A stretch of DNA of 64,000 bases from an uncultured Myxococcales bacterium (lineage in GTDB: Bacteria > Myxococcota_A > Bradymonadia > UBA4248), in contig CAYVQF010000021.1 in NCBI GenBank assembly GCA_964454015.1, forward strand, positions 13,890 to 77,889. The letters are read 5' to 3'. The notes beneath the pieces are model-generated. The model searched no databases. It worked only from the letters and a program-made list of their open reading frames with translations, and was not told the DNA's origin. Shown here piece by piece: positions 1,078 through 39,161 of this stretch (position 1 is its first letter; every line of letters starts with the position of its first letter). The position numbers and the translations under genes are program-made.

Positions 1078-3318
1078 ATGACAACGACCTCTCCTCTCTT
1101 GGCCAAATTTCACGCGTCGCGCCTGTGGGTGGTGGCCCACGCCGATAGCCTGCTCGCGGGTGCTCTGGCGGTGGCGGCCTTTGTCTTCTGCGTGCGCAAC
1201 CTGGTCTTTTTTTTCCCCCGCACCGTAGACGATCTCTTCATCTACCTGCGTTACGCCGAGAACTTCATCAGCGGCGCCGGCTTGGTCTACAACCCGGGCG
1301 AGTGGGTAGAGGGCTACTCCAGCGTCACCTGGCTGCTGGTGCTAGCGGCCATCATGGGCACCGGGCTGGATGGGGTCACGGCGACGAAGATCCTAGCGCT
1401 GGCCTCCACCCTGCTCATGGTGGTGGGTTTCTATCGCATCGGCCGCGGTGTCTTTGGGATGTCGCGGGCCTGGGCGATGGCCGCCGTGCTGCTGGTGAGC
1501 GTCAACAGTTATATCCTGTCATGGGCAGTCTATGGCTTGGAGACGCCGCTCTATCTCGCCTTGTTGTTGTGGTTCGGGCATCTGGTGCAGCGGGTCGCCG
1601 ATGGCGAAGGCGGCCGGCGGGCGCGCCTCGCCTTGGCGGTGGTCGGCGTGGCCTTGGCCCTGGTGCGCCCAGAAGCGCCACTGTTCATGGTGGCCGTGGG
1701 GCTCGGCTGCGTCCGCGTGCCGCAAGGGCGCGCGCCCCTGTGGCTGACCCTGCGGCGCTTGGCTGCGCCCGCCGCGGCGGTCATCGGCGGCTACGGTGCT
1801 TGGCTCCTCGTCCGTTTCCATTGTTACGGGCTGTGGGTTCCGCACACGTATTTCGCCAAGAAAGGGGAGGGCTTCACTTGGTCGAACCTCGCTCCTCTGT
1901 TCAGCAACGGCGCCGACGCATCAGAGATCGTCTGGTGGCCAGTGGTCTTCATTTGTGGCCTCGCCCTGGCGCTGCTGACGCGTCGCTTGCTCGCCCCCAT
2001 CCTCTTCGCCGTGGGTCTATTCTTCGTCGCCCGGGTGGAGATGGACTGGATGCCGAACATGCGCCATTTTTTGCCGCTGTGGTTGCTGGCGTCGCTGTGC
2101 CTGCCCGCCATGGCCCAGCGCCTGTCCCAATGGCACAGCGCGTCGCCGCTGTGGAAGAGCGCTGCTTGGAGCGCCAGCCTGACCCTGGTGCTCGTCGGGC
2201 TGTGGACCGGAGCGTGGCTCAATCAGTTGGACTCGCGCTTCTCTCCCTACGACTTCGAGACCCATGGGCGCAAGACGCAGTGGGTGCGGCAGAAAACACC
2301 CGAGTCGTGGGCGTCGTCCCTGGCCCTGCTGCAGCGCCGCGATCCGCCGGGCTATGAGAACGCTCACCCAGACCATTTGGGCTTGATTCAAGAGCTCTTT
2401 GTCGCCGTCGAGGCTTCCAGCCAACCCGAAGCGTCGAGCTGGTACTTGGGGCGCGACATCGGGATGGTGGGCTACTACTCCCCCATCCAAATTTATGACA
2501 CGGATGGTCTCTTCACACCGCGGGCCATCCAATACACGGGCGGACGCGATCGCTTGCCCATTGCCGACGCGGCCATCTTGGAGGCCTTCGACCCGGCCCC
2601 CGTGGCCGGCATGATCTTCTTCGAATGGGCCGCCGCCTTGGGGCGCAATCAACATCTCCTGAAGGACTACGAGATCCTCATCGGTTCATTGCCGCGGCCT
2701 CACCGCTTCATGCAGAAGGCGCATCCGCGCCCAGACGCCGCGCAGTTGGCGCAGCGCTACGCGCGCATCATGGCCAAGCTGCCGCCCCATTTTCACTTCG
2801 CCGAGCTCTACGGTAACCCCGCCAGCCCAGCCATCGCCTTGCGCGCCCGGGTCGTGCAGGAGCGCCTCCAGCTCACGGAGGAGGTCTTGGTCAGCGAAGC
2901 CTCGGTGCCGCGCTTCGCTGGCGACGGCCATGTCCTGGACCGGGCCATTCGCTTGGCGGGCTGCACGATCGCACAACCTTATTTGTCGGCGGGTGAGCAG
3001 ACGCTGTTATCCTGCTATTTCTATCGCGTTGGCCCCCTTTACCGATCCTACTGGGTCTTCGTCCACGGCGACGCCCACGGTCGCCGTTTGCTCCATGCCG
3101 ATCACCCGCTGGCGCACGACACGGTAGACCTGGCCACAGTGGCGATGGGACAAGCGGTGGTCAGCCGCCAATGGTTGCGTGTGCCCAACGACGCCCCACG
3201 CGGTGAGGTGCCCGTCTTCGTTGGTCTCTTCAGCCAGGATCACCGCGCTCAGGTACACCCTGAGGCCGGCACGGACGGTGACCATCGCATTCGGGTAGGC
3301 TCGCTGTGGGTCGAGTGA
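1078..3318 (+). CDS. Large polytopic membrane protein, possibly a GT-C-type glycosyltransferase
   Basis: ATG at 1078. The N-terminal ~400 aa have 10 or more hydrophobic helices with a YLRYAENF loop motif. A large soluble C-terminal domain follows. No precise family recognised. Confidence 0.4.
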   Translation: MTTTSPLLAKFHASRLWVVAHADSLLAGALAVAAFVFCVRNLVFFFPRTVDDLFIYLRYAENFISGAGLVYNPGEWVEGYSSVTWLLVLAAIMGTGLDGVTATKILALASTLLMVVGFYRIGRGVFGMSRAWAMAAVLLVSVNSYILSWAVYGLETPLYLALLLWFGHLVQRVADGEGGRRARLALAVVGVALALVRPEAPLFMVAVGLGCVRVPQGRAPLWLTLRRLAAPAAAVIGGYGAWLLVRFHCYGLWVPHTYFAKKGEGFTWSNLAPLFSNGADASEIVWWPVVFICGLALALLTRRLLAPILFAVGLFFVARVEMDWMPNMRHFLPLWLLASLCLPAMAQRLSQWHSASPLWKSAAWSASLTLVLVGLWTGAWLNQLDSRFSPYDFETHGRKTQWVRQKTPESWASSLALLQRRDPPGYENAHPDHLGLIQELFVAVEASSQPEASSWYLGRDIGMVGYYSPIQIYDTDGLFTPRAIQYTGGRDRLPIADAAILEAFDPAPVAGMIFFEWAAALGRNQHLLKDYEILIGSLPRPHRFMQKAHPRPDAAQLAQRYARIMAKLPPHFHFAELYGNPASPAIALRARVVQERLQLTEEVLVSEASVPRFAGDGHVLDRAIRLAGCTIAQPYLSAGEQTLLSCYFYRVGPLYRSYWVFVHGDAHGRRLLHADHPLAHDTVDLATVAMGQAVVSRQWLRVPNDAPRGEVPVFVGLFSQDHRAQVHPEAGTDGDHRIRVGSLWVE

Positions 3319-5273: not shown

Positions 5274-5979
5274 GGTTCTCAACGGCCAGTGGCGCCCCAC
5301 GCTTCTTGGCCCGATGGCGCTGCAATGAGCCATCCCCGCGTCGGCCTTGCAGGAGGAGCACCATGAGGTAGGCCGGCAGGCCAAGCAACGCCACGGCAAA
5401 GTAGCTGTGGAGATAGAGGGCCGCCACGGCGAGGGCCAAGAGTGCCAGGGCCGCGCCCCACATGCCGAGGCGGAACGCCTCATCGTTGCGGCGGGTCCAG
5501 AGATAAAAGGCCTCCAATCCCGCCACCAGCGCCACGGCCACCGCTGCGACGGGCCACATGGCCTGCTCCAAGGTCTCGGCCGCCCCCTGCCGCAGCAGGA
5601 TCAGGCTCGCCACCCAGGCGACCACGGCGACGCCCATGAAAATCACCATCGCGTGGCGCAGGGGGCGGAGCATCTCCCCCTGGCGCGGCGCGGCCGTCAC
5701 GAGGGTACCCAGGCGGTCTTGCTGCAGCAGCCGCACGGCCGCAGCGAGTGCCACCACGCCAAAGGGCAGGGCCAGCACGCCGCCGAGGATGCCGAGGCGC
5801 GCCCCTTGACGCGGACGCCCGCCCTGCGCGAACAGCGCCCCTGCTCCAGCCAGCAGCGCCCCCGCGGCGCCCGTCACCCCCAGAATCCACAGCCAGGGCA
5901 ACGCGACCACCGGCACGACCCACAAGGTCACGGCACCGACGAAAGCGACCACGATTCCAAGCCACAACAGCGCAGTCAT
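5263..5979 (-). CDS. Hypothetical integral membrane protein (about 6 TM helices)
   Basis: Hydrophobic helices throughout (MTALLWLGIVVAFVGAVTLWVV...). ATG at 5979. Overlaps the rsmG start by 11 nt, which suggests co-transcription. Confidence 0.45.
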   Translation of the reverse strand: MTALLWLGIVVAFVGAVTLWVVPVVALPWLWILGVTGAAGALLAGAGALFAQGGRPRQGARLGILGGVLALPFGVVALAAAVRLLQQDRLGTLVTAAPRQGEMLRPLRHAMVIFMGVAVVAWVASLILLRQGAAETLEQAMWPVAAVAVALVAGLEAFYLWTRRNDEAFRLGMWGAALALLALAVAALYLHSYFAVALLGLPAYLMVLLLQGRRGDGSLQRHRAKKRGAPLAVENHGR

Positions 5980-6224
5980 TGCTCTTCCAGGGGGGAGTAG
6001 TCGAGAAAAGACGGGGCGATCCCACGGCAGGGCGCCACTTGGCCGAAAATAGCACGCCCCACTCGGGGTGGCCACTGCTGCCAGCGCAGCAAACGGCGAG
6101 GCGGCCACCCCACGGCCAGCGCAACCTTGCCCCCCGAGGCGAAGGCCGCTAGCGTAGCCCGCGGTCGAAGGTCCGTTCACCCCTACTCGCCGCTCCGGTG
6201 AGCAGAGCCAACGAAGACGCAGCG

Positions 6225-8060
6225 ATGGCATACCTGGTATTGGCCCGCAAGTGGCGGCCGCAGAGCTTCACAGATGTCGTGGGACAGGGACACGTCACCC
6301 AGACCTTGGCCAACGCCATCCGTCAGGGGCGCGTGGCCCACGCCTTCCTCTTCACGGGCTCCCGAGGGGTGGGCAAAACCTCGACGGCCCGCATCCTGGC
6401 CAAGGCCCTCAATTGCCAAGAGGGCCCGACGCCGACCCCCTGCAACCAGTGCACGGCCTGCGTCGACATCACCGACGGCCGCGCCGTGGACATCATCGAA
6501 ATCGACGGCGCCTCGAACCGCGGCATCAACGAAATCCGCGAGGTGCGGGAGGCCGTTCGCTACGCCCCGAGCCGCGAGCGCTACAAAGTCTACATCATCG
6601 ACGAGGTCCACATGCTGACCACGGAGGCCTTCAACGCCCTGTTGAAGACCCTCGAGGAGCCCCCCAGCCACGCGGTCTTCGTCTTCGCCACCACCGAACC
6701 CAACAAAATCCCCGTCACCATCTTGAGCCGCTGTCAGCGCTACGACTTCAAGCGCGTCACCGTGCGGGATCTCTGTGAACGCCTGCGCCACATCGCCGAC
6801 GCCGAGGGGATCGACTTCACCGACGAGGCCTTGACCCTTTTGGCGCGCCACGCCCGCGGGGGCGTGCGCGACGCGCTGAGCGCGATGGACCAGGTCATCG
6901 CCTTCGCCGAACCCCCCATCAGCGCCGAGTCCGCCGCTGAGACCTTGGGCATCGCCAGCCGGGAGACCCTTCACTCCCTCGGCGAGGCGCTGGTCAACCG
7001 CGACGTGGATCGGGCCTTGCGGGTCTTGGAGAAGGTCGACAGCTATGGCCAAGACTTGGGCCATTTCTCCGTCGATCTCCTGGAGCACCTGCGTGACATG
7101 ACCGTGGTGTGCGCCGTCGCCGACCCCCAGGGGCTCACCGAGCTGGGCGAGTCCGAGCTAGAGCGGGTCAAGGCCGCCGTCAAGAACGTCAGCATCGAGC
7201 GCCTCCAGCGCATGTTTCAGATCTGGTCCGAGGCGGTGGACCTGGTCGTTCGCTCGCTCTATCCCAAGCTGTTGATGGAGATGACCGTGGTCAAGATGGC
7301 CGCCGTCGCGCCCATGCCGCCCCTGCTGCCCTTGCTCAGCCGCCTGGAGGCGCTGGAGAAATCGCTCCACGGCGACCTGCCGCGTGAGCAGGACTTGCTG
7401 GCCAAGATGCGGAGCCACCTGGCGGCGTCCCTCCGGGACTATGCGCCGCTGGGGTCCAGCGGTGACGCTCTGCCGGCGCCCTCTGAGCCACCCCCGGGGG
7501 AAAAAAAAAAGCCTGAAGCGCTAGCCTCTCGCGTCAGCGCGCCGCCGTCACCCCCGCAGCCGCCCCCTGCCACCACGGCGGCCACGCCGCACGCCCCAAC
7601 GAAAGTGGAAGCCCAAGAGACGCGGGCAGGGGCGATGGCGACGGCGGAGGTGAGCCCAGCGGAGTCTGGCGATCCTTGGCGTTCGGCCCTGCGGCGCCTC
7701 TCGCCCAAGGTAGCTGGGGTGATGGAGCAGGCCGTGGTGGTGCGTCTCGAGCCGACGGCGTTGGAGCTGGCCTTGAGCGATGGCTTGCGCGGGCTGTTGG
7801 TGGAAGCGGATTTGGCGGCCCTGCTCGACAGCCTCGCCCTGGAGTTGGGCGCACGGCCGCGCCTGCGCTTCGTCGAAGCGGCCCCAGCGGCCACCTTGTC
7901 GCTGGCCGAAGAGCGACAGCAAGCGCGTGAGCAGCATCAGGAGGCCATGCGCGAACGTATCCGCACGCATCCCTTGTTGGGCGAAGCCATGACGCGTTTT
8001 GGCGTCGACGCGAGCAGCGTCCGCATCGATTTACATCTCTATGAGGAGGATGAAGGATGA
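6225..8060 (+). CDS. dnaX: DNA polymerase III subunit tau/gamma
   Basis: MAYLVLARKWRPQSF..., Walker A GSRGVGKTS, and zinc module CNQCTAC. The C-terminal half is Pro/Ala-rich and tau-specific. It contains an in-frame A_AAA_AAG slippery heptamer at 7505-7511. Confidence 0.92.
   Translation: MAYLVLARKWRPQSFTDVVGQGHVTQTLANAIRQGRVAHAFLFTGSRGVGKTSTARILAKALNCQEGPTPTPCNQCTACVDITDGRAVDIIEIDGASNRGINEIREVREAVRYAPSRERYKVYIIDEVHMLTTEAFNALLKTLEEPPSHAVFVFATTEPNKIPVTILSRCQRYDFKRVTVRDLCERLRHIADAEGIDFTDEALTLLARHARGGVRDALSAMDQVIAFAEPPISAESAAETLGIASRETLHSLGEALVNRDVDRALRVLEKVDSYGQDLGHFSVDLLEHLRDMTVVCAVADPQGLTELGESELERVKAAVKNVSIERLQRMFQIWSEAVDLVVRSLYPKLLMEMTVVKMAAVAPMPPLLPLLSRLEALEKSLHGDLPREQDLLAKMRSHLAASLRDYAPLGSSGDALPAPSEPPPGEKKKPEALASRVSAPPSPPQPPPATTAATPHAPTKVEAQETRAGAMATAEVSPAESGDPWRSALRRLSPKVAGVMEQAVVVRLEPTALELALSDGLRGLLVEADLAALLDSLALELGARPRLRFVEAAPAATLSLAEERQQAREQHQEAMRERIRTHPLLGEAMTRFGVDASSVRIDLHLYEEDEG
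7501..7516 (+). other. dnaX: Putative programmed -1 frameshift or transcriptional-slippage site in dnaX (A10 run followed by a -1-frame TGA)
   Basis: Sequence gggggAAAAAAAAAAGCCTGAagcg. The zero frame reads E-K-K-K-P-E. After a -1 slip on A_AAA_AAG the frame reads GCC TGA (Ala, stop). This would give a gamma-like product of about 439 aa. Confidence 0.6.
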
Positions 8061-8383
8061 AGAAGTCTAAAGGAACGGGACTCAATCAGATTTTGACCCA
8101 GGCCCAGCGTCTGCAGGGCAAGCTCGGCAGGCTGGAAGACGATCTCAAGTCGAAGATCGTCGAGGCCTCGGCGGGTAACGGCAAGGTGACGGCCGTGGTC
8201 AACGGCAACCGCGAGCTGTTGGCGCTGAGCATCGACCCGTCGGTGATCTCGGCCGACAACCCGGAGTTGCTGGAAAACCTGGTGGTCTCGGCGGTGAACA
8301 CCGCCTTGAGCAATATGCGCGAGATGGTGAACACGGAGATGAACAAGGTGACGGGCGGTTTTTCGATCCCCGGGCTGATGTAG
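8057..8383 (+). CDS. ybaB: Nucleoid-associated protein YbaB/EbfC
   Basis: 108 aa with the YbaB-family pattern (LQGKLGRLEDDLK...VTAVVNGN...). Its ATG overlaps the dnaX stop (ATGA). The dnaX-ybaB-recR order is conserved. Confidence 0.85.
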   Translation: MKKSKGTGLNQILTQAQRLQGKLGRLEDDLKSKIVEASAGNGKVTAVVNGNRELLALSIDPSVISADNPELLENLVVSAVNTALSNMREMVNTEMNKVTGGFSIPGLM

Positions 8384-8391
8384 GAGCCGCC

Positions 8392-8994
8392 GTGCACAGC
8401 GAGGGTGATCCCATCCAGCGCCTCATCGAGGCCCTGGCCCGCTTGCCGGGCATTGGGCGCAAGACGGCGACGCGGCTGGCTTTTTTTCTGCTCAACGCCG
8501 ACCCGGCCTATGCCCAGGAGCTGGCGGCGGCCGTGGTCGAGGTCAAGGCGCGCATTGGCTATTGCGAGGTGTGCGCCAACCTGTGCGAGGCGGCGCGTTG
8601 CCGGATCTGCGCCAGCACCAAGCGCGACCCGCAGGTGATCTGCGTGGTCGAGAGCCCGCAAGATCTGCTGGCGGTGGAAGCGACAGGTGACTTCGACGGG
8701 CTCTACCACGTGCTGCACGGGGTGATTTCGCCTCTGGATGGGGTGGGGCCGGACGATTTGAAGATCGCGGCTTTGCTGCAGCGGGTTCGGGAGACGGACT
8801 TACAAGAGGTGATTTTGGCGACCAACCCTTCCGTGGAAGGGGAGGCCACGGCGATCTACCTGCAGCGCCTCTTGGCGCCCTTGGGGCTCAAGGTGAGCCG
8901 CATCGCCAGCGGTCTGCCCATGGGCGCGCAGCTCGAGTATGCCGACAAGGCCACCCTGGGGCGCTCGCTCAAGGAAAGGCGCACCCTGCTCTGA
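8392..8994 (+). CDS. recR: Recombination protein RecR
   Basis: HhH motif LPGIGRKTATRLAFFLL, C4 zinc finger CEVCANLCEAARCRIC and a Toprim region. GTG start with an AGGAG RBS. Confidence 0.9.
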   Translation: MHSEGDPIQRLIEALARLPGIGRKTATRLAFFLLNADPAYAQELAAAVVEVKARIGYCEVCANLCEAARCRICASTKRDPQVICVVESPQDLLAVEATGDFDGLYHVLHGVISPLDGVGPDDLKIAALLQRVRETDLQEVILATNPSVEGEATAIYLQRLLAPLGLKVSRIASGLPMGAQLEYADKATLGRSLKERRTLL

Positions 8995-8998
8995 GGCC

Positions 8999-10252
8999 TC
9001 AGGCCAGGCTCACCCAACGCACGAGCGGGGCCAGGGTGCCGATGCCGTCGTGGCGCCAGGACAGGGGAGGCCGCTGCATGTGCCCCAGGGGGCAGACGCG
9101 GTTGAGGCCGGCCAGCGTCAGGGTCGCGAGTCGTTGCGGGGTGAGGGTCGCGCCGGCCATGCCGAGGCATTGGAGATGGGGCGCGGCGGCGCTGAGGTGG
9201 GGGATGAGGTCGTCGAGGTCGGCCACGGGGTAGACCGGGAGCACCCGCGCGCCGCAGGAGGGGGTCAGGGGCTGGGCGCTGGGATAGGCCAAGATGGTGG
9301 CCCCACCAGGGGCGGTGAAGGCGTGCGCGTCGAGGAGGGCGTTCTGGATGTAGGAGCGCCGATGGGCGCGGGCGGCGGCGTCGAGAGGCCCGAGGGGGAA
9401 GCGGGCTTCGAGGGGCGGCAGGGCGTGGTGCGCCAGTTGCCGCGCCACCTCGGCGGCGTCTTTGGCGTCGCCCTGGAGGTAGAGGGCCTGCGGAGAGAGG
9501 CAGCCGTACTGGTCCCAGAGGCAGAGGTCGAGGGCGAGGTCGCTCAGGATCGCGGGCGTCGGCTCGGGGTCGGCGCCGAGGTAGGCCGCCGAGATGCGGT
9601 GTCCGTAGGGGACGAAGATCTGGTGGGGTCGCGCGAGGCGCTGCCACTGGGCGACGGCGCGGGCGCTGCCGTGGACGACGATGGCGTCGCCGGCAGCGGC
9701 CATGGCGGCGGCGCTGTCGAGATCCGATGAGGGGAAGTGGGCCAAGATGACCGCCGGCGCCAGGGCGGGGGCGCACCGCGCCAGCACCTCGAGGAAGGCG
9801 CGCATGAGCGGCTGCAAGCGCGCCGCCGCTCTGACCAGGACGGGGACGCCCGCCATGACGGGGAGCATGGTGGCCTGGATGCCGGCCGGCGGTACGGTAG
9901 CGGCGAGGACCATGGCGAGGCGCTGGGGCAAGAGGGGGCGCCAGTGGGGGTGTTCTTGGGGCAGCTCCGTGGCGAGGAAGCGGCGCATTGCGTCAGGTTG
10001 CCAGCATCGTTCCAGCTCGCCGAAGCCGAAGGCGAGGGTGGCGGCGCTACAGCCGCAGGCCTCGGCGCCAGCGGCCCAGTCGCTGGCGCCGAGGCCTGCG
10101 GCGAGCTGGGTCATGGCGGCCAGGCGCGCCTCGATGTCCATGGCTGCGAGGGCGAGGCGGGCTTGGTACATGGCCTGAACGGCCTGGGCCAAGCCCGCCT
10201 CGCCTAGGGGGGCATGCCAACCAGCGCCGCTGAAAAACCCCGTCACATCCAT
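8999..10252 (-). CDS. Acyl-CoA reductase, LuxC-like (fatty aldehyde-forming)
   Basis: LuxC-family length and motifs (AIVVHGSARAV, YGHRISAAYL). Start chosen at MDVTGFF (ATG at 10252), overlapping the stop of the upstream gene by 10 nt. Confidence 0.55.
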   Translation of the reverse strand: MDVTGFFSGAGWHAPLGEAGLAQAVQAMYQARLALAAMDIEARLAAMTQLAAGLGASDWAAGAEACGCSAATLAFGFGELERCWQPDAMRRFLATELPQEHPHWRPLLPQRLAMVLAATVPPAGIQATMLPVMAGVPVLVRAAARLQPLMRAFLEVLARCAPALAPAVILAHFPSSDLDSAAAMAAAGDAIVVHGSARAVAQWQRLARPHQIFVPYGHRISAAYLGADPEPTPAILSDLALDLCLWDQYGCLSPQALYLQGDAKDAAEVARQLAHHALPPLEARFPLGPLDAAARAHRRSYIQNALLDAHAFTAPGGATILAYPSAQPLTPSCGARVLPVYPVADLDDLIPHLSAAAPHLQCLGMAGATLTPQRLATLTLAGLNRVCPLGHMQRPPLSWRHDGIGTLAPLVRWVSLA

Positions 10253-11403
10253 AGCGACCGCTCTGCCCCGCTCAACATGGCGTCCAAAGCGATGGAGCAG
10301 CCCTTGGCCACGGCGCCAGCCCGGCCGCACAACTGCAAACAGGCGTCCACGGGCCACGGGAGATGGGCCGCCGCCTCGGGCGGCACTGGGTGACAGCGCC
10401 CCAAGTCCCCCGTGAGCACGTACGCCGCCGAATCCAAGTTGGCCAGATCCCGCAGGGCGATCTGCCCCTCTTCGCCCCAGGGCAACTCGGTCAGGCTGTC
10501 CGGGTCGAGCACGGCGAAGCGGCACCATGGCGGCCCCACGAAGCGATCCCGCAGCGCCAACGCCAGATCCCCGTGCCCAGCCAAGGCCAGCGCCATGGAC
10601 GCCTCATAGAGCTGGCTCGAGAGCTCAGACATCCCATACTCGGCCACGATCAGCGCCGCCTCCAGCCCCAGGGTCGCCACCAAAGCGGCGTGCAAGTCTG
10701 GGCGGGGAACCTGGCGGCTCAAGCCCTTGTAGCCACCGGTCTCCAATAGCCGCGACCCCGCTGGCAGACGCCAGCGCCGCCCCCCGAGGCCATCCAGAAA
10801 ATGGACGAAAGCGAAAGAGGGCCCCAACAAAAACACCGGGCGCCCTGAAGCCTCGGCCGCATCCAACGCCGCCGTGAGCCGGGGCGCGTCCAAGTTGCCC
10901 GCCGCGTCGACGAGGAAGTGCCCCCCACCGTGGTGGCGCATCAAGTGGGCGAACATATGCACCAGCGAGCTGTGCGGTGCGTCGGCGTCACTTGGGGTCA
11001 GCACCCACCATGACAGCTCGGCGCCGTCGCCCAAGACCATGGGCGCAAAGGTCGCCAGGATCGCCGTGTCCATCAACGCCAGGGTCTTGAAAACGTGACG
11101 CGAGCGCTGCTCCGCCGTCGTGCCGCTGGAAAAGAAGGTCGCCACCGCCTCGGAGGCGTCATGGGGAAAGAGGTCAGCCCGTTTGAAGGCCTCCACGGGC
11201 AGCGGCGGCAAGCCCCAGGGATCACCGCCGGGCTCGACGCCGCCGTGGCGACAATAGCGCCCATAGAGAGGGTGCGCCTGCGCCTGGTAGGTCATGATCT
11301 GCGCCGTCAACGCACGCCAAGCCTCGGGCGCGAGGCCGCGGGTCATCCCGGCCAACAAGGCCTGCTCCAGGCGCGCCCGCTCCGCTGCCCACCTGGCCGC
11401 CAT
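10243..11403 (-). CDS. Acyl-protein synthetase, LuxE-like (adenylate-forming)
   Basis: FFSSGTTAEQRSRH matches the LuxE SSGTTG nucleotide-binding motif. Length about 387 aa. ATG at 11403 shares one nt with the rex stop. Confidence 0.55.
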   Translation of the reverse strand: MAARWAAERARLEQALLAGMTRGLAPEAWRALTAQIMTYQAQAHPLYGRYCRHGGVEPGGDPWGLPPLPVEAFKRADLFPHDASEAVATFFSSGTTAEQRSRHVFKTLALMDTAILATFAPMVLGDGAELSWWVLTPSDADAPHSSLVHMFAHLMRHHGGGHFLVDAAGNLDAPRLTAALDAAEASGRPVFLLGPSFAFVHFLDGLGGRRWRLPAGSRLLETGGYKGLSRQVPRPDLHAALVATLGLEAALIVAEYGMSELSSQLYEASMALALAGHGDLALALRDRFVGPPWCRFAVLDPDSLTELPWGEEGQIALRDLANLDSAAYVLTGDLGRCHPVPPEAAAHLPWPVDACLQLCGRAGAVAKGCSIALDAMLSGAERSLWM

Positions 11404-12074
11404 CACCGCGCCTCCGGCACATCTCGCACGGCATAGGCCAGCTCCGCCAGATCCACGCTGAGCTGCTCGTCGCGCACCAGCACCCCGGGCGGCGCGACCA
11501 AGGTGGCAGGGGTGAAGTTCCAGATCGCGCGCACCCCAGCCTCTACCAAGGCCTGCATCGCTTCCTTCGGCGTCGCCGACCGACTCGGCGTGATGATCCC
11601 CAGACGCACGCCCAAGCGCCGGCACTCACGGGGGAGCGCCTTGAGGGGATACAAACTCGCCCCGGCCACCACCTCTCCCGTGGCCTCGATGTCATCGTCG
11701 AAAATGGCCACCACCGCCAGCCCACACACGGAAAAAAGCGGATAGTCCGCCAGGGCCCGAGCCATGCGCCCGCTCCCAACGATCACCGCCCCCTTGAGGG
11801 TGTCCAGGCCCAAGCGCTCGCGAATGGCCGCCAGGACCGTCGCGCCCGTGAAGCCCACGCTCGGTTTGCCCCGCAAACCGAGGGCCGCGAGATCCTTGCG
11901 CACCTGGGTCGGATCGACGCCACAGTGCTTGGCCAAGTGTTCGCTCGCGACCACATCGGACGCAACGGCCCAATCGGTCAAGACCCGGTGGTAACGCATC
12001 AGACGCTCAAAGTGGAGGCGCTTCACGGACCCGCTCCTTCGCCAAGCCTCAGCCGAGGCATTCCTTTGCTGCAC
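11403..12074 (-). CDS. rex: Redox-sensing transcriptional repressor Rex (NADH/NAD+)
   Basis: N-terminal winged helix VKRLHFERLMRYHRVL resembles the Rex KRLPLYYRFL motif. Rossmann motif IVGSGRMARALA. About 220 aa. Confidence 0.7.
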   Translation of the reverse strand: MQQRNASAEAWRRSGSVKRLHFERLMRYHRVLTDWAVASDVVASEHLAKHCGVDPTQVRKDLAALGLRGKPSVGFTGATVLAAIRERLGLDTLKGAVIVGSGRMARALADYPLFSVCGLAVVAIFDDDIEATGEVVAGASLYPLKALPRECRRLGVRLGIITPSRSATPKEAMQALVEAGVRAIWNFTPATLVAPPGVLVRDEQLSVDLAELAYAVRDVPEAR

Positions 12075-12197
12075 TTAGCACGTTGCGCCGCCAGCGTCAC
12101 TTCGTTAAAAGATCACTCGCCCCCTCATCCTGGGCGGCGAGGCGCCACGGCTGACGCCGCGCCGGCCCCCACCACACCACCCCACGCCGAGACCACC

Positions 12198-12878
12198 ATG
12201 TGCATCTCTGACGAAGTCTGGAAGAAGTGCAGCGCCTGCCGCCGCCCCATCACCTATGGTGCCGTGTATTGGGCCTGCTCGGTGTCCACCTGCAACAGCA
12301 AACGCATGGGGCTCTTTTTCTGCTCCATCGGCTGCTGGGACGCGCACCTCCCCGAGGCACGCCACCGCTCGGCGGCGGCCGTAGAGCAGCGGGCCCCCAG
12401 CGCCCCCGAGCCTGAGGCGCCCGCGCCGCAGAGCTCTGCCAAAGCAGCCGCGGCGCGGCCAGCCCTCCACGGCGATGCGCCGCGGGAGATCCTCATCGTC
12501 GCCGCCCACCTGGAATCCTACGTGGCCGATCGCGCTGGCGAGCCCCTCAAAGTGCCACCAGCGGTGCTACATCTCTTGAGTGACTACCTCCGCGAGCGTT
12601 GCGACGCGGCCATCCAGCGCGCCCAGGCCGCAGGGCGCAAGACCGTCCTCGAGCGCGATGTGGCCCCTCCCCCTGCCGCCCCGGCAGGCCCCATGCTCTG
12701 CATCGTCTCGCGGGTCAAGCACTACATCCGCGCCACGGCAGACTGCAACACCGCCGCCGCCGCCTTGGACTTGCTCTCGGCGCACGTCCGCGCCCTCGCC
12801 CACGAAGGGGTACGCAAAGTGCTGCGCGAAGAACGCGGCACCCTGCTGCCCAGCGACCTGCCGCCCAGGGCCTACTGA
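12198..12878 (+). CDS. Hypothetical protein with an N-terminal zinc ribbon and a C-terminal histone-fold-like region
   Basis: CSACRR...CSVSTC...CSIGCWDAH is a Cys-rich zinc-ribbon-like N-terminus. The C-terminus AAGRKTVLERDV resembles the archaeal/H4 histone alpha3 signature (H/A)AGRKT(I/V)xxxD(I/V). Confidence 0.4.
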   Translation: MCISDEVWKKCSACRRPITYGAVYWACSVSTCNSKRMGLFFCSIGCWDAHLPEARHRSAAAVEQRAPSAPEPEAPAPQSSAKAAAARPALHGDAPREILIVAAHLESYVADRAGEPLKVPPAVLHLLSDYLRERCDAAIQRAQAAGRKTVLERDVAPPPAAPAGPMLCIVSRVKHYIRATADCNTAAAALDLLSAHVRALAHEGVRKVLREERGTLLPSDLPPRAY

Positions 12879-33398: not shown

Positions 33399-35846
33399 AT
33401 GAAGCACTGGAATCAGCGTGGCCTGGCCTCGAGCCCTTGGCTCCTCTTCTCTCTCTTCGCTCTGGCATCCTTGAGCGCCGCCTGCGGTGCCGATCGCCAA
33501 GGCCCCAGTCCCAAGATCGAACGGGTCGAGCCCAACGTCATCCACACGGCCAACCAAGACGCCACGGTGACCCTCATCGGCACGGGCTTCTCCCCTGCCA
33601 TCGAAGGGGCCCTCGACGACCCCCGCGTGATGATGCCCAAGATCGAGCTCATCGGCCAAGACGGCACGGTCTACCACATCGATCAGGCCAACGTCTCCTT
33701 CCCCGCCGACGACATCTCAGGCACACGCCTCGTGGTCACCGTGCCGGCCCAGCTCGTCCCACCGCGCGCCCTGGGCGAACCCGACGCCATCTACGACCTC
33801 AAGGTGATCAACCCCGATGGCTCGAGCCACACCCTGACCGCTGCCATCACCGTACGCGCACCCTCGTTCTTCGCCATCACCTCCATCGACCCACCTTTCG
33901 CTTGCACCTGCGCCGATCAGCTCGTCACCATCGTCTCCGACGGTGCTTTCGTGTCCACCCCCGTCGTAGGCGTGCGCCCTGCCGACCAGAGCGATCTCAA
34001 CGATCTCTCCTTCCTGCAGCGCGTGGCCTTCGTCGACGCCAACACCCTCACGGCCGTCGTGCCGGCAGGGCTCCCGTTGGGCACCTACGATCTCGTGGTC
34101 ATCAATCCAGAGAGTGACGGCCGCATCGGCCTCCTCGAGGATTCCCTCCGCATCGTCCGCTTCCCCATCCCGCGCATCGTCCACATCCTCCCTGGGCGCG
34201 GCACCACCCAGGTCAACACCGGCTTGACCATCTTCGGGCGCGACTTCCGCGGCCCGGCGCGGGTCGAGCTCCTCAACCCATCCATGACGGTGGTCGAGTC
34301 CCTGACCCCGGCCCGGGTCACGGCGGAACAGATCGATGTCCAAGTCCCCACCACCCGCATGAGCGTCGGGCCCTACCTGGTGCGCGTCGTCAATGAAGAC
34401 GAAGAGACCTACTATTCTTACGCCAGCTTCCTCGTCACCAACCCGGCTGGCAACCTCAACACCTTCGAGCAAGACAGCCCCACGGTCATCGGGCGGCGCA
34501 TGGTCGCCGGCACCTCCGTCGCCGACGATCTGGGCAACCGCTATATCGTGGCCATCGGGGGCGACACGGGCCAGAACGGTGAGGTGCTCGACACCATCGA
34601 AAGGGCCCAACTCTCCAAGTTCGGCGCCCTGAGCGCCTGGCAAGTGCAGCGCAACACCCTCACGGTGCCGCGCCGCGGCGCATCGGCCGTGGCGCTGCCC
34701 CTCTTCAACCCTGCCTACTCCCCATATATCCCCGAAAAGACTTACGTCTATGTCGTCGGCGGTCGCGACGCCAGCGGCAACGTCCTGAACACGGTCGAAC
34801 GCGCCGTCGTGCTGAGCTCGACCGAAGCGCCAACCTTGCAAGCCGAACCCGCCGCGAGCGCGGGCAGCCTCGCTGCCGGCACCTGGTACTACAAAGTCTC
34901 GGCGGTCCTCGCCGCGGACGACGCCGATAACCCGGGCGGCGAGACCCTCCCCTCAGACGAGGCGATCATCCGCACCGGCGCGAACGGCGCCGTCACCTTG
35001 TCCTGGGCGCCCGTAACGGTGCGTGGAAGCGCCGCCGTGGCCTACCGGATTTACCGCAGCCCCGAAGTCGACGGTCGCTCCCAAGACGAACGCTTCCTCG
35101 CCGAGGTGACCACGACGTCCTACACCGACGACGGCTCACAGTCCACCACCGACGCGGCGCCGCACTTTCCCGGTGCCACTGGCGTCTTCCACGAGATCAA
35201 CCGCCGCATGACCATGCCGCGCTGGGGCCACCACGCGCTCCTCGTCCAAGGCGACGACGGCAACCGCCACTTGGCCGCCGTCGCCGGCAGCGCCGGCCAA
35301 GTGGTGCTCGACACCATCGAGTTCGCCGCTTTCGACGTCGACGGCAACCTGGGTGGCTTCAACCCATCGGCAGAAGTGTTGGCCGTCGGCCGGGTCTTTC
35401 CCGCGGCCGTGGTGCAGACCAAGGCCAACGTCGCCACTTACGACCAGAACGGCTCGCGCTTGTGGCTCGCCGGTGGCTACACCTCGACCGCCGCCACGGA
35501 CACCATCGAGTGGGCCGATTTCGGCACCAGCCTCGGTGCTTGGGAAACCCTCGGCAAGAAGGTGCTGGCCCGCGGCGGCTCCATGGCGGTCATCACCAAC
35601 CAGAAAGCCTTTTTCTTGGGCGGCGCCGGTGGCACCCCTGAGGCGCCGACGGCAGTGCGCACCGATGGGCGCGACTCCCAGTTCGACGGCGTAGGGATGC
35701 TCTCGGGCGCCGTCAACTCGACCGCCAGCTCTCTCCTCAGCCCGCGCGCCTTCGGGGTGGCCATCACGGGCGCCGGCTTCATCTACTTCGTCGGCGGCAC
35801 ATCCAACGGCGTCGACGCGGCCAACGCAGTGGAGCGCACCTTCTAG
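33399..35846 (+). CDS. Secreted lipoprotein with IPT/TIG-like and Kelch-type beta-propeller repeats
   Basis: Lipobox LSAAC. Repeated ...VVGG/AIGG... blades (YVYVVGGRDASGN, RYIVAIGGDTGQNG, FIYFVGGTSNG) typical of Kelch propellers. The N-terminal Ig-like segments are Thr/Val-rich. Confidence 0.5.
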   Translation: MKHWNQRGLASSPWLLFSLFALASLSAACGADRQGPSPKIERVEPNVIHTANQDATVTLIGTGFSPAIEGALDDPRVMMPKIELIGQDGTVYHIDQANVSFPADDISGTRLVVTVPAQLVPPRALGEPDAIYDLKVINPDGSSHTLTAAITVRAPSFFAITSIDPPFACTCADQLVTIVSDGAFVSTPVVGVRPADQSDLNDLSFLQRVAFVDANTLTAVVPAGLPLGTYDLVVINPESDGRIGLLEDSLRIVRFPIPRIVHILPGRGTTQVNTGLTIFGRDFRGPARVELLNPSMTVVESLTPARVTAEQIDVQVPTTRMSVGPYLVRVVNEDEETYYSYASFLVTNPAGNLNTFEQDSPTVIGRRMVAGTSVADDLGNRYIVAIGGDTGQNGEVLDTIERAQLSKFGALSAWQVQRNTLTVPRRGASAVALPLFNPAYSPYIPEKTYVYVVGGRDASGNVLNTVERAVVLSSTEAPTLQAEPAASAGSLAAGTWYYKVSAVLAADDADNPGGETLPSDEAIIRTGANGAVTLSWAPVTVRGSAAVAYRIYRSPEVDGRSQDERFLAEVTTTSYTDDGSQSTTDAAPHFPGATGVFHEINRRMTMPRWGHHALLVQGDDGNRHLAAVAGSAGQVVLDTIEFAAFDVDGNLGGFNPSAEVLAVGRVFPAAVVQTKANVATYDQNGSRLWLAGGYTSTAATDTIEWADFGTSLGAWETLGKKVLARGGSMAVITNQKAFFLGGAGGTPEAPTAVRTDGRDSQFDGVGMLSGAVNSTASSLLSPRAFGVAITGAGFIYFVGGTSNGVDAANAVERTF

Positions 35847-35996: not shown

Positions 35997-38900
35997 GTGA
36001 TGGGCGACGGAATTTTCCTCAACGATCGTTACCGTATGGGTGACCTCCTGGGTGAGGGCGGCATGGGCCGTGTCTTCCGGGCTCAGGATCTCCGTCTCCA
36101 GCGCGACGTGGCGATCAAGTTCTTGCCACGCATCGACAAGGCGAGCATGGTCGAGCGCTTTCGCGCCGAAGCCATGGCCGTGGCCCGTCTGAATCACCCC
36201 AACATCGTGACGGTCTTCGACTACGATTACCTAGAGGGCAACCACGCGGCCCTGAGCGCTCTGGGTCTGTCGCAGAACCCGCCCTGCCTCCCCGGGGACG
36301 ATCTCGCTGGCGAGCTCCAGCGTGGCCAACCTTTCATCGTCATGGAGTATCTGCCGGGGAAGAGCATCCGCGAGGCCGAGCTCAGCGACGCCGTGGCCAT
36401 CCTCGACGTGGGGCTCGCCCTGTGCGACGCCCTCGACTACGCTCACCGCGAAGGGATCGTGCACCGCGACGTCAAGCCCGACAACATCCGCATCACCGAC
36501 GATGGGCGGGTGAAGCTCCTCGATTTTGGCATCGCCTCCTTCTGCCACCGGCGGCGGATCACCCTGGACGGCGAGGTCCTGGGCTCTCTGGTCTATATGT
36601 CACCCGAGCAGGCCCTGAGTGAGCCCATCGACGCCCGCTCGGACATCTACGCCCTGGGTCTGGTCCTGTACGAGTTGCTGGCAGGGCGGCTGCCCTTCGA
36701 TGTCTCCAGCCCCATGCGCTCCTTGGAGCAACGCACCTCGGGGACCTTGCCCGGCCTGCGCAAGTTTTGCCCCAAGCTGCCCCTGGCGTTGGAGCAGGTC
36801 TTGGCGCGGGCCTTGGCGCGCCAGCCCGAGGGGCGCTACGCGACAGCGAGCGACTTTGGCCAAGCCCTCCGCGAAGTGCGCGACGCCATGGCCCAGAGCA
36901 TGGCCAACGCCACGACCTTCGGCCGCTATGAGCTGATCAAGCTCTTGGCCGTTGGCGGCATGGGGGAGATCTACCTGGCCCGCGTCAAGGGCCCCGCCAA
37001 CTTTGAGAAGCGCTGCGTCATCAAGAAAATCCTGCCGCATCTGGCCACCGAAGAGGAGTTCGTCACCAAGTTCATCGACGAAGCCAACACGGTGGTTCAG
37101 CTCACCCACGGCAACATCGTGCCGGTCTTCGACATGGGTGAGCACCAGGGGGAATACTTCATCGCCATGGACTACATCCCTGGCGTCAACCTGCGCACCC
37201 TGCTCAAGGCCCGGGCGCAGCGCCAGAGTCCTCTGCCGGTGGCCATGTGCATCCACCTCCTCTGTGAGGTGTGTAAGGGTCTGAGCTACGCCCACCGCAA
37301 ATGCGGCACCGACGGTCAAGCCCTGGGGATCATCCACCGCGACATCAGCCCCTCGAACATCTTGGTCTCTCTCGAAGGAGAAGTGCGGCTCGTCGACTTT
37401 GGCATCGCCAAAGCGACCTCGCGGATCACCCGCAGCGTGACGGGTCGCCTGCAGGGCAAGTTCGGCTACATGAGCCCTGAGCAAGCCAGTGGCGCCCCCC
37501 TCGATCTGCGCTCGGACATCTTCTCGGCTGGCGTCGTTCTCTACGAATGCCTGACCGGCGCCCGTCCTTTCGAAGGGGAGTCAGACCTGGCCTCCCTCGA
37601 GGCCGTCAAGAGTCACGAGGCGGCGGCACCCAGCACGTTGCGCCCAGGGATCGCCAAGGAGCTCGACCAGATCGTCGCCAAAGCGCTGGCCAAGAAGCCA
37701 GCGGATCGTTTCGCCAATGCCGACGACTTCCTCGACGCGTTGCTGAAGTTTTTGGTGACCACGGGCCAACATGTGACGCCGCAGGACCTGGCCAAAGAGG
37801 TCGCCGCCGACATGGACGGCGGCGACGACGCCATGGGCGGCGCTGCCTGCCTCGACGCCTTGCTCGGGCAGGAGGTTGACAGGCTCATCGCCGCAGAGCG
37901 GCGCCAGAGCGCGCAGACGCTGACGGCAACGGCCGACTCGAACCGCACGAACGACGGCGCCGCGCTCCTCGCCCCGCTCAGCGAAGAGGACACGGCGACC
38001 CTCTCGTCACCGGGGCAGACCCCTACGGCGCCACCACGCGATGAGCCTAGCCCTGCCCCCAAGCGCCAGGGCTCGCGTCGGTGGCGGTGGTTGGCGGCCC
38101 TGCTGCTCGTGGGGCTGGTGCTCTTCCTCGGGCAACAGTGGCTGGCCCAACGCAGCGGTCAAGCGCCTCAGCAGATCACGCCTGCGGCGGCGGCCGCCGC
38201 TGCGGCGCCGGAGGTGGATCCAGAAGAAGCCGACGTGGAGCCACCCCAGGTCCCGGCCCAGACTGAACCCGTCGCGCGCTGGCACAGCTTCGACTTCGTC
38301 ACCAGCCCGGAAGAAGCGCTGATGGTCGTCCAATCGGGGCTCGCCGATGTGGACCACAGCGCCGATCTGGTGCGCCTCAACACGAGTCGCCAGGCGTCGC
38401 TGACCTTCTCCGCCGAGGGATATGCGGCCTGCACGCTGGACTTGCAACTCGCGCCCCTGATGGGCGAGCCCGTGCAGGTGCCCGTCCTGCACGCCAAAGG
38501 CTGTCTCAGCGCCTATATCGCCGGGGGATCCCCCCTGCCCGATGGCACACTGAGCATCGCCGTGCAGCTCGCCAAGCTGGACGTGGTGGTCGAGGTTGCG
38601 CCGCCCGACAGCGGCGAGGGCAGCGTTGCCAATGGTTCTTCCCGCAGGGATGGCAACGGCAAGCGGCCCAAGGAGGGGGAGCGCAGCCCGCGGGCGCTGG
38701 CCGTGACGGTGCGCTCCAACGTCGAGGCGACGGTCAGCCTCGGTGATCGCAGTGGTGCGGCGCCCTTCACGGCGCAGGTCAACCGCGGCCAGGACGCCGT
38801 GCAGATCAAAGTGACGCCGCGCGGGCTGGGGCTGCCTTGGCAGCGCAGCTTCGATCCGGCGAGCGTAGAGCGCGGCTTGGAGCAGACGGAGATGGAGGCG

Positions 38901-39161
38901 CGTTTCTGCCCGGTGGTGGTACACGTGGTGGAGCCGCGCATCCCCGACGATCCAGCGCCTTATGGCGTGGCAGACGTCTACGTGGGTGAGGCGTTGATCG
39001 CGCGCGGGGTTTCGCGGGCTTCCTTCGTGGTGCCCTGTGGGCGGCACAAGGTCAGCTTGCGCTATCGCGGCGACGACGTGGAGTTGCAGGGCGAAGCGTT
39101 GGTGGACGCCAGCAGCGACAAAGCAGCCAGCGCCTCGATCGCCATGCAGCGGGTCCGATAA
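35997..39161 (+). CDS. Membrane Ser/Thr protein kinase with two tandem kinase domains and C-terminal PEGA-like extracytoplasmic region
   Basis: Domain 1 has GEGGMGRVF, VAIKFL, HRDVKPDN and DFG. Domain 2 has GGMGEIYLA, VIKKIL, HRDISPSN and DFG. A TM helix WRWLAALLLVGLVLFLG follows, and the C-terminus carries a PEGA-like VYVGEALIARGVSRASFVVPCGRHKVSLRY. Confidence 0.8.
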   Translation: MMGDGIFLNDRYRMGDLLGEGGMGRVFRAQDLRLQRDVAIKFLPRIDKASMVERFRAEAMAVARLNHPNIVTVFDYDYLEGNHAALSALGLSQNPPCLPGDDLAGELQRGQPFIVMEYLPGKSIREAELSDAVAILDVGLALCDALDYAHREGIVHRDVKPDNIRITDDGRVKLLDFGIASFCHRRRITLDGEVLGSLVYMSPEQALSEPIDARSDIYALGLVLYELLAGRLPFDVSSPMRSLEQRTSGTLPGLRKFCPKLPLALEQVLARALARQPEGRYATASDFGQALREVRDAMAQSMANATTFGRYELIKLLAVGGMGEIYLARVKGPANFEKRCVIKKILPHLATEEEFVTKFIDEANTVVQLTHGNIVPVFDMGEHQGEYFIAMDYIPGVNLRTLLKARAQRQSPLPVAMCIHLLCEVCKGLSYAHRKCGTDGQALGIIHRDISPSNILVSLEGEVRLVDFGIAKATSRITRSVTGRLQGKFGYMSPEQASGAPLDLRSDIFSAGVVLYECLTGARPFEGESDLASLEAVKSHEAAAPSTLRPGIAKELDQIVAKALAKKPADRFANADDFLDALLKFLVTTGQHVTPQDLAKEVAADMDGGDDAMGGAACLDALLGQEVDRLIAAERRQSAQTLTATADSNRTNDGAALLAPLSEEDTATLSSPGQTPTAPPRDEPSPAPKRQGSRRWRWLAALLLVGLVLFLGQQWLAQRSGQAPQQITPAAAAAAAAPEVDPEEADVEPPQVPAQTEPVARWHSFDFVTSPEEALMVVQSGLADVDHSADLVRLNTSRQASLTFSAEGYAACTLDLQLAPLMGEPVQVPVLHAKGCLSAYIAGGSPLPDGTLSIAVQLAKLDVVVEVAPPDSGEGSVANGSSRRDGNGKRPKEGERSPRALAVTVRSNVEATVSLGDRSGAAPFTAQVNRGQDAVQIKVTPRGLGLPWQRSFDPASVERGLEQTEMEARFCPVVVHVVEPRIPDDPAPYGVADVYVGEALIARGVSRASFVVPCGRHKVSLRYRGDDVELQGEALVDASSDKAASASIAMQRVR

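Follow-up and report, generated by a model that had tools for sequence, protein, structure and literature searches.

The window, by which we mean the whole 64-kb stretch of DNA that was analysed, comes from an uncultured Bradymonadales-related (Myxococcota-type) bacterium and carries a chromosomal set of three overlapping genes, encoding a Rex repressor, a LuxE-like protein and a LuxC-like protein (Table 1). The set is flanked by dnaX-ybaB-recR on one side and by a divergent histone-fold gene on the other.

Table 1. Positions of the features at the rex-luxE-luxC locus, numbered from the first nucleotide of the window
Feature	Position	Strand	Description
rex	11403..12026	minus	207 aa, GTG start; redox-sensing transcriptional repressor
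luxE-like	10243..11403	minus	386 aa; acyl-protein synthetase, ANL superfamily
luxC-like	8999..10252	minus	417 aa; acyl-thioester reductase, ALDH superfamily
TGATG junction	11401..11405	minus	rex stop and luxE-like start with one common nucleotide; seen in the sequence and in other contigs
luxE-like end/luxC-like start overlap	10243..10252	minus	10 nt; seen in the sequence and in other contigs
Shine-Dalgarno-like AAGGAG	12034..12039	minus	7 nt 5' of the rex GTG at 12026; read from the sequence
Divergent intergenic region	12027..12197		171 nt; must hold the operon promoter

The three open reading frames and the stop/start overlaps described in an earlier note on this DNA were borne out by an ORF check and by reading the sequence. 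Each gene has a Shine-Dalgarno-like element of its own. The rex stop codon TGA (11405-11403) contributes its A to the ATG of the luxE-like gene (11403-11401), 7 nt upstream of which a Shine-Dalgarno-like GGAGG is placed within rex, and the ATG of the luxC-like gene (10252-10250) lies inside the luxE-like gene, which stops at 10245-10243. The same population yielded three more contigs in other samples, and gene calls on them repeat the 207-aa Rex, the 386-aa LuxE-like protein and the 10-nt overlap; independent contigs with the same boundaries rule out an assembly artefact at the junctions. The span up to 12074 given in the earlier note holds for the three reading frames but not for the start of rex, as 12074 simply marks where the longest ORF opens. 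The true start is most likely 12026, because relatives align to this ORF only from residue 17-22 onward, because the GTG at 12026 has a strong AAGGAG in front of it and because public gene calls give a Rex of 207 aa; public data hold an identical product of this length.

Short overlaps between genes are a usual mark of operonic genes, and rex, the luxE-like gene and the luxC-like gene form a real three-gene operon. Since the genes overlap and are co-oriented, a single promoter in 12027-12197 almost certainly serves all three, with coupled translation. No match to the sigma-70 consensus was found in 8700-12400, including the intergenic region, a scan that is uninformative for this lineage. One could argue that there is no functional co-expression, with luxE and luxC read from an internal promoter in rex, or with read-through cut by a terminator-like hairpin and T-run inside rex (11751-11737). 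However, the stem of this hairpin has only six pairs, three such hairpins occur in the region against 2.0 +/- 1.6 by chance, and the hairpin sequence encodes the conserved ALADYP motif of Rex, which points to coding constraint. A scan of rex itself gave no promoter-like site, the 1-nt overlap and the Shine-Dalgarno sequence within rex favor coupling, and we regard a lack of co-expression as highly improbable.

The rex product is predicted to be a genuine, normal Rex redox sensor, in agreement with the earlier assignment, and its scores exceed the cut-offs of three NCBIfam models (NF003994, 156.9 bits, cut-off 130; NF003996, 156.5 bits, cut-off 138; NF003995, 148.4 bits, cut-off 126). The expected domain plan of an N-terminal winged-helix and a C-terminal Rossmann NAD(H) domain is present, Pfam reports Put_DNA-bind_N (PF06971) and CoA_binding (PF02629), and the protein aligns full-length to Thermus aquaticus Rex (1xcb/3ikt) at E=1e-22. 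It keeps the family-invariant residues R10, Y14, Q44-V-R-K-D48, G56, G61, G87, G89, A94, Y98, D112 and N170-F-x-P173, and the T-Rex residues for recognition of DNA and NAD(H) (R10, R46, K47, G87-x-G89, Y98 and D112) are all identical, with a recognition helix that reads as the invariant QVRKD. It departs from T-Rex at S30A, at position 59 (an unusual Ser, G59 in T-Rex), at G92A and at D188Q; few of 120 homologues have these residues at 30, 59 and 92, and position 188 varies.

For the luxE-like protein, 683 homologues were found, most of them with Pfam PF04443 (LuxE) and the best at 48% identity. Its own sequence gave no PF04443 match even at E<=1 and, searched singly, matched Photobacterium phosphoreum LuxE (7xc6_E) over residues 41-375 at E=3.4e-7. 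The profile of its 34-member family matched 7xc6_E over the full length at E=3.2e-35 versus E=0.015 for PaaK, which sustains the LuxE assignment of the earlier note; the same family-profile search rules out a phenylacetate-CoA ligase or a coenzyme F390 synthetase. Cys369 (codon 10299-10297) is the presumed acyl acceptor; its G-C-S context, S93-G-T95 (SSGT) and G223-G-x-K226-G are invariant in the 34 relatives, and in the C-terminal part KGCS lines up with QKGCS of 7xc6_E. The protein would thus be a divergent LuxE-type acyl-protein synthetase.

The LuxC assignment also held, the luxC-like protein matching Pfam LuxC (PF05893) at E=3.3e-37 (128.8 bits, cut-off 21), with an alignment that covers positions 69-401 of the 401-position profile. 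Its DQYGCLSPQ aligns with DQQACFSTQ of 7xc6_A, which places Cys251 (codon 9502-9500) on the catalytic Cys, a residue that 71 of 74 family members share. Both proteins keep the catalytic equipment of LuxE and LuxC. Because all three family assignments hold, we reject the combination of a phenylacetate-CoA ligase and a generic aldehyde dehydrogenase, which the earlier note had named as the outcome that would count against it. A codon third-position bias was considered as a sign of foreign origin of the luxC-like gene; the bias, though real, does not go beyond what other genes in the window show, rpoC among them, and we drew no conclusion from it.

The locus follows the P. phosphoreum LuxC-LuxE system (PDB 7XC6; PMC9157457) in its two-protein logic and in its fold families: the synthetase is ANL-type with an acyl-accepting Cys at the C-terminal end, the reductase is ALDH-like with a catalytic Cys, and the two genes are adjacent. 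The relationship is very distant, however, with scores of 21.7 bits against the NCBIfam LuxE equivalog (cut-off 550) and 27.5 bits against the LuxC equivalog (cut-off 750), so that the bioluminescence equivalogs NF052244 and NF052251 are not reached, and there is no luxCDABE context. Here the E gene precedes the C gene and their codons overlap, in place of the luxCDABE order, and the LuxC-like protein has 417 aa compared with 477 aa in P. phosphoreum. The absence of luxAB remarked on in the earlier note was confirmed among the window proteins scanned, which include no luxA, luxB or LuxD-like product.

LuxC and LuxE without luxAB are not novel in themselves, as LuxE-LuxC pairs of this kind occur in at least 598 GTDB species and luxE/luxC homologues are known from nonluminous bacteria, for example from the polar-flagellin glycosylation islands of Aeromonas (PMC7874193). 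The window locus shares with these islands, and with a very large uncharacterised family of PF04443/PF05893 pairs, a stand-alone luxE-luxC without luciferase; it differs in having no glycosylation, ACP or fatty-acid-synthesis neighbours, in having rex in front, at this locus only, and in an identity to any relative in the databases of at most 48%. We inspected the neighbourhoods of the best 80 of the at least 598 species loci, with counts given over 84 loci. LuxC lies directly downstream of LuxE on the same strand in 69 of the 84, often with a 4-nt overlap, and an overlap from LuxE to LuxC is a trait throughout the family. Such pairs form a self-contained module of wide distribution, and only two partners recur beside them: a class-III aminotransferase (Pfam Aminotran_3, E=3e-90) and an ABC ATPase. 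The aminotransferase gene is a neighbour of the pair in 24 of 84 loci and as a rule directly precedes it on the same strand; the ATPase gene follows the pair in 20.

The aminotransferase hints at aldehyde-to-amine chemistry in those other loci, and the "fatty" aldehyde, ether lipid and wax proposed in the earlier note are conjecture. The window pair might likewise be the first half of a carboxylate-to-amine or other small-molecule route, its aldehyde being used by a class-III aminotransferase encoded elsewhere in the same genome and the link to Rex being irrelevant to lipids. The frequency of both partners is consistent with such a route, as is the closest LuxE relative (L001), in which the aminotransferase lies downstream, past a three-gene insertion. 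However, no homologue of the aminotransferase or of the ABC protein is present anywhere in the 64-kb window, the aminotransferase is not nearby in 60 of the 84 loci, and the sequence tells neither chain length nor substrate class, so that we consider this route rather unlikely.

The linkage of rex to the pair was sought from both sides, in 85 LuxE loci and around the four nearest Rex relatives, and was conserved in neither direction. In a search by tblastn and with a Rex HMM built from 120 homologues, none of the other 83 LuxE-LuxC loci, 73 of which had at least 1 kb of upstream sequence, showed Rex in its flanks; the earlier note had rightly called the arrangement no textbook one. The nearest LuxE relatives (45-48% identity), one of them from the closest named organism, are accompanied by LuxC but not by Rex, and the nearest Rex relatives (43-47% identity) have as neighbours, in place of LuxEC, genes for APS reductase/Qmo or hydrogenase or aromatic amino-acid genes. 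On this genomic comparison, rex in front of luxE-luxC is a lineage-specific juxtaposition, a one-off arrangement of ordinary parts found in one population only. Two observations count against reading it as mere juxtaposition: a 1-nt overlap of stop and start ties two genes closely, and selection would not obviously keep such a tie between unrelated genes, and typical Rex targets are NAD(P)H-consuming reductive enzymes, which suits LuxC. Close relatives of the host lineage are absent from the databases, which makes phylogenetic footprinting of the intergenic region impossible.

A Rex operator, which the earlier note had proposed to look for upstream of rex, was not found there. We searched with N6 and N4 spacers at up to 3 mismatches and with GTGA-N4-12-TCAC, and scored every 18-mer in full. 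The best match to TTGTGAA-N4-TTCACAA (TTGTGAANNNNTTCACAA) had 7 of 14 positions within 12027-12197, 8 of 14 at its edge (12198) and only 10 of 14 across the whole window. No GTGA-N4-12-TCAC lies upstream of rex; two GTGA half-sites flank an AT-rich stretch there, in direct, not inverted, orientation. The Rex box of Staphylococcus aureus is TTGTGAAW4TTCACAA (PMC2883068), and ROP sites mapped by footprinting in Streptomyces, whose genomes are high-GC, score 12-13 of 14 (PMC5355995). In about 855 kb around LuxEC pairs, only one site with at least 12 of 14 was found, 2.3 kb from luxE. A canonical box would be expected for the window Rex, because it retains the invariant QVRKD recognition helix.

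The negative operator result is weaker than it appears, and a divergent Rex might read a variant site, since boxes are scarce or degenerate among its nearest relatives and since it differs at S30, 59, G92 and D188. In a search for a motif specific to the clade, L087 alone of the four nearest relatives proved to have an 11/14 box, ahead of its own rex, and one relative uses a degenerate variant that scores 8-9 of 14; L088 has a repeated AATCGTGAC..AAATCGC..TAA element. No counterpart of the L087 box or of the L088 element is present in the window. The luxE-luxC pair is almost certainly co-expressed with Rex, and the sequence gives no sign that Rex represses the operon. With no operator, no conserved linkage and no Rex boxes at LuxEC pairs elsewhere, the "cognate" Rex repressor and the NADH-responsive route of the earlier note are not supported, and NADH-responsive control by the canonical mechanism is unlikely.

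Rex could instead autorepress rex-luxE-luxC through a non-canonical or half-site operator, such that a rising NADH/NAD+ ratio would release Rex, the acid-reducing pair would be made, and aldehyde, alcohol or lipid synthesis would serve as a redox outlet. The coupling of the operon is real and has a precedent in the autoregulated rex-hemACD(B) operon of Streptomyces, which also places rex first, together with biosynthetic enzymes, in a high-GC genome; in that case, however, the operon is conserved genus-wide and its promoter carries a footprinted ROP (TTGTGCACGCGTTCACAA) that matches 13 of 14 positions (PMC5355995), whereas the window operon reaches 7-8 of 14 at best and is known from one population. 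Half-site binding has been reported (PMC5355995), degenerate boxes are apparently used by relatives of the window Rex, and the two GTGA half-sites lie around the AT-rich stretch, but they form no Rex-type inverted repeat, and the conserved recognition helix points to a canonical site. Clostridial Rex regulons control adhE, thl and crt-bcd-etfBA-hbd, and enzymes of NADH-dependent acyl or aldehyde reduction are typical of Rex regulons (PMC5367854), a logic like that proposed in the earlier note, in which acyl groups would be reduced to aldehyde or alcohol at the expense of NAD(P)H, with Rex as the gate. Clostridial targets, however, have recognisable boxes and use NADH without an ATP cost, and neither feature is evident at the window operon. 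In the P. phosphoreum reference complex, which turns long-chain fatty acids into aldehyde, LuxC uses NADPH and ATP is spent (PMC9157457), which makes the reaction a poor NADH sink. The linkage being unique to this lineage and LuxEC pairs elsewhere lacking Rex boxes also speak against autorepression, which we judge to be unlikely.

It seems quite unlikely, too, that a horizontally acquired Rex has been wired to the acid-reductase module through a non-canonical site in 12027-12197, such as the GTGA half-sites, with aldehyde, alcohol, alkyl-lipid or amine synthesis switched on at high NADH. If this were true, Rex would gain in LuxCE-type modules a new target class that belongs neither to fermentation nor to respiration. 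Gating of the module by Rex, if real, would extend Rex regulons to ATP-dependent acid reduction and would offer a first physiological handle on the very large uncharacterised family of LuxE/LuxC pairs from nonluminous bacteria.

On balance, we think it probable that the locus is a real rex-luxE-luxC operon, encoding an acid-to-aldehyde pair, as homology suggests, and a Rex that acts in trans. By analogy with P. phosphoreum LuxC-LuxE, the LuxE-like enzyme would adenylate a carboxylic acid with ATP and keep the acyl group in thioester linkage to its C-terminal Cys369, from which the group would pass to Cys251 of the LuxC-like reductase, and this enzyme would free the aldehyde using NAD(P)H. The targets of Rex would most likely lie elsewhere in the genome. 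From an under-sampled lineage, the locus adds divergent representatives of three known families, and it shows LuxE-LuxC to be a mobile two-gene module, for whose function the recurrent aminotransferase partner is a better lead than the link to Rex.

Three ORFs lie in the same orientation on the minus strand of 8999-12074 and encode a Rex protein (gene 1), a LuxE-like synthetase (gene 2) and a LuxC-like reductase (gene 3). For this span, which an earlier note had read as an operon, the three-gene layout and the codon overlaps stand, the A of the rex TGA being shared with the luxE-like ATG and the luxC-like ATG lying inside luxE-like by 10 nt (both read from the sequence); position 12074 does not stand as the rex start, as it is merely that of the longest ORF. 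Rex family alignments begin 17 to 22 residues inside that ORF, and in public gene calls the product is a 207-aa Rex starting at 12026. The 1-nt and 10-nt overlaps recur, together with identical proteins, on three further contigs of this population taken from other samples, so the junctions are real. To judge from the sequence, the three genes have one promoter region, a coupled arrangement and intact catalytic residues.

Features of the rex-luxE-luxC region and other window features (window coordinates)
Feature	Position	Strand	Remarks
rex (gene 1)	12026-11403	minus	TGA 11405-11403
Shine-Dalgarno-like AAGGAG	7 nt before rex GTG at 12026	minus	sequence read
luxE-like (gene 2)	11403-10243	minus	ATG 11403-11401; stop 10245-10243
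Shine-Dalgarno-like GGAGG	7 nt before luxE-like ATG	minus	sequence read
luxC-like (gene 3)	10252-8999	minus	ATG 10252-10250; stop 8999-9001
Intergenic region	12027-12197		171 nt, between rex and divergent 226-aa gene
Gene divergent from rex	12198-12878	+	226 aa
Invariant residues in window Rex	R10, Y14, recognition helix Q44-V-R-K-D48, G56, G61, G87, G89, A94, Y98, D112, N170-F-x-P173
dnaX-ybaB-recR	6198-8994		recR stop 8992-8994
Palindrome	8990-9003		perfect; holds recR and luxC-like stops
Large ORF	1078-3318		746 aa; no Pfam match
Large ORF	33399-35846		815 aa; no Pfam match
Tandem kinase gene	35997-39161	+	1054 aa; two tandem Ser/Thr protein kinase domains

On domain and residue evidence, gene 1 encodes a genuine Rex. 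The protein combines the Pfam domains Put_DNA-bind_N and CoA_binding (Rossmann), exceeds the curated cut-offs of three NCBIfam Rex models, can be aligned from end to end with Thermus Rex structures (E=1e-22) and has all positions that are invariant in an alignment with 120 homologues. It departs from the usual residues at only four positions (S30A, Ser at 59, G92A, and Gln at 188, itself a variable position), and the closest database Rex outside the same population is 47% identical.

The weak point of the annotation is gene 2, whose own sequence gives no match to Pfam LuxE and whose NCBIfam LuxE match is C-terminal only (E=9e-5). Nearly all of its 683 detected homologues carry PF04443, its residues 41-375 align with the LuxE chain of the P. 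phosphoreum complex (7xc6_E; E=3.4e-7), C-terminal K-G-C-S included, and a profile of gene 2 with 33 relatives matches LuxE at E=3.2e-35 versus E=0.015 for phenylacetate-CoA ligase; Cys369 and the ANL motifs do not vary within the family. This LuxE evidence, the profile included, excludes the refuting case that the earlier note had named, a phenylacetate-CoA ligase paired with a generic aldehyde dehydrogenase. The luxC-like product covers nearly the whole Pfam LuxC model (E=3.3e-37), and its DQYGC(251)LSPQ lines up with the motif that holds the catalytic cysteine in P. phosphoreum LuxC, Cys251 being kept in 71 of 74 relatives. With these scores, the Rex, LuxE-like and LuxC-like assignments proposed earlier hold. 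Against the NCBIfam equivalogs of the bioluminescence proteins, the LuxE-like protein scores 21.7 (cut-off 550) and the LuxC-like protein 27.5 (cut-off 750), so neither is an orthologue of those proteins. Third-position codon bias within 8999-12026 flips sharply at the luxE/luxC boundary, from favoured G3 in rex (skew +0.16) and luxE-like (+0.14) to strongly favoured C3 in luxC-like (-0.39), where GC reaches the window maximum of 74%; neither measure is outside what other window genes show.

The validated Rex box is TTGTGAA-N4-TTCACAA (PMC2883068; PMC5355995), and footprinted Rex sites in high-GC Streptomyces, that of the rex-hemACD promoter included, match it at 12-13 of 14 positions (PMC5355995), whereas the operator expected in front of the window rex did not emerge, the best match there being 7/14, or 8/14 at the edge (12198). 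The best 18-mer anywhere in the window reached 10/14, and neither mismatch-tolerant patterns nor GTGA-N4-12-TCAC matched upstream of rex, where two GTGA motifs are direct repeats. In ~855 kb of sequence surrounding the LuxEC pairs of other taxa, a single site reached at least 12/14, 2.3 kb from luxE. A variant Rex site upstream of the window rex is conceivable, since its nearest relatives are also partly without canonical boxes. Among their loci, L087 shows an 11/14 box in tandem duplicate, 57 nt ahead of its rex, and L088 (likewise L089) has the 22-mer AATCGTGACGAAAATCGCATAA (5947-5968) upstream of a rex whose product is 46% identical to the window Rex and the near-identical AATCGTGACAGAAATCGCGTAA (6760-6781) upstream of aprB. 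These 22-mers, with 8-9/14 to the consensus, look like a degenerate, clade-specific candidate Rex operator. The L087 and L088 variants and a relaxed GTGA-N6-TCNC are absent upstream of the window rex.

When every GTDB species was represented by one genome and scanned with a degenerate pattern, at least 598 species had a LuxE relative; we examined the best 80 of these loci and also five loci from metagenomes that encode the closest proteins. LuxC directly follows LuxE on the same strand in 69/84 loci, very frequently with a 4-nt overlap, so the pairing of the two enzymes and their translational coupling characterise the family. Neither tblastn nor an HMM from 120 Rex homologues detected Rex in any of the 83 other loci, 73 of which have at least 1 kb and 59 at least 3 kb of upstream sequence. 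In the nearest named relative (CG2_30_63_29 and a sister MAG), the LuxEC pair stands without Rex in a different neighbourhood, and the nearest Rex relatives adjoin APS reductase/Qmo genes, a hydrogenase operon or aromatic amino-acid genes; the linkage is thus unconserved from either side. A rex-first biosynthetic operon is known (rex-hemACD; PMC5355995), and clostridial Rex is known to regulate acyl and aldehyde reduction (PMC5367854). The earlier proposal of a cognate repressor, in which rex-luxE-luxC would be autoregulated and NADH-responsive, lacks both a Rex box and a conserved link, and we consider it improbable. We rather favour, with some reserve, that the LuxE-like and LuxC-like genes are co-expressed with Rex and not demonstrably under its control; Rex from the same mRNA would most likely act on operators elsewhere in the genome.

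By analogy with the P. phosphoreum LuxC-LuxE complex (PMC9157457), the LuxE-like enzyme would adenylate a carboxylate and acylate its own Cys369, the acyl group would pass to Cys251 of the reductase, and NAD(P)H-dependent reduction there would release an aldehyde. Only two neighbours recur around the pair: a class-III aminotransferase (24/84 loci, L001-L085 and the window; Pfam E=3e-90), in most cases directly upstream of the pair and in the same orientation, and an ABC-transporter ATPase after the pair (20/84). These counts suggest that in many genomes the aldehyde may be transaminated, in a carboxylate-aldehyde-amine route, or the product may be exported; both genes are absent from the window. 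At the locus of the closest LuxE relative (L001, 5049-8286), an inserted three-gene block resembling a defence island (GmrSD_N, AAA_21/DUF3696 and one further gene) separates LuxC from the class-III aminotransferase. Elsewhere (L005, 4821-7260), the LuxE-like relative P0009 (46% identity) begins 17 nt after a ThiF-rhodanese (MoeZ-like) gene and has no LuxC nearby; therefore not every member of its subclade works with LuxC.

LuxE/LuxC pairs without luciferase are extremely common and already documented, Aeromonas flagellin glycosylation islands being one example (PMC7874193). New are only the rex-luxE-luxC juxtaposition, in one population, and the divergence of the three proteins, at most 48% identical to anything in databases outside that population.

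The window proteins scanned include no luciferase, LuxD-like thioesterase or aminotransferase, which bears out the reported lack of luxAB. The remaining window is core chromosome (tRNAs, a tuf/ribosomal-protein cluster, rpoB, rpoC, two class-I tRNA synthetases, FabH, kinases), and its RpoB is 77% identical to that of 'Deltaproteobacteria bacterium CG2_30_63_29' and 74% to that of a Bradymonadales MAG; on this basis the host is an uncultured relative of the Bradymonadales. The luxC-like gene is convergent with dnaX-ybaB-recR on its downstream side, with 4 nt between both stop codons and no terminator between recR and luxC-like; the palindrome spanning these stops is CTGAGGCCTCAG. In the 226-aa protein encoded divergently from rex, a Cys-rich N-terminus resembles a zinc ribbon and two halves resemble histone folds: residues 166-221 match the Bdellovibrio bacterial histone (8cmp/8fvx; E=0.002), residues 103-153 the 59-aa PDB protein 9f2c (E=0.25), and Pfam CBFD_NFYB_HMF is sub-threshold (E=0.058). 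This protein is probably a bacterial histone doublet fused to a zinc finger.
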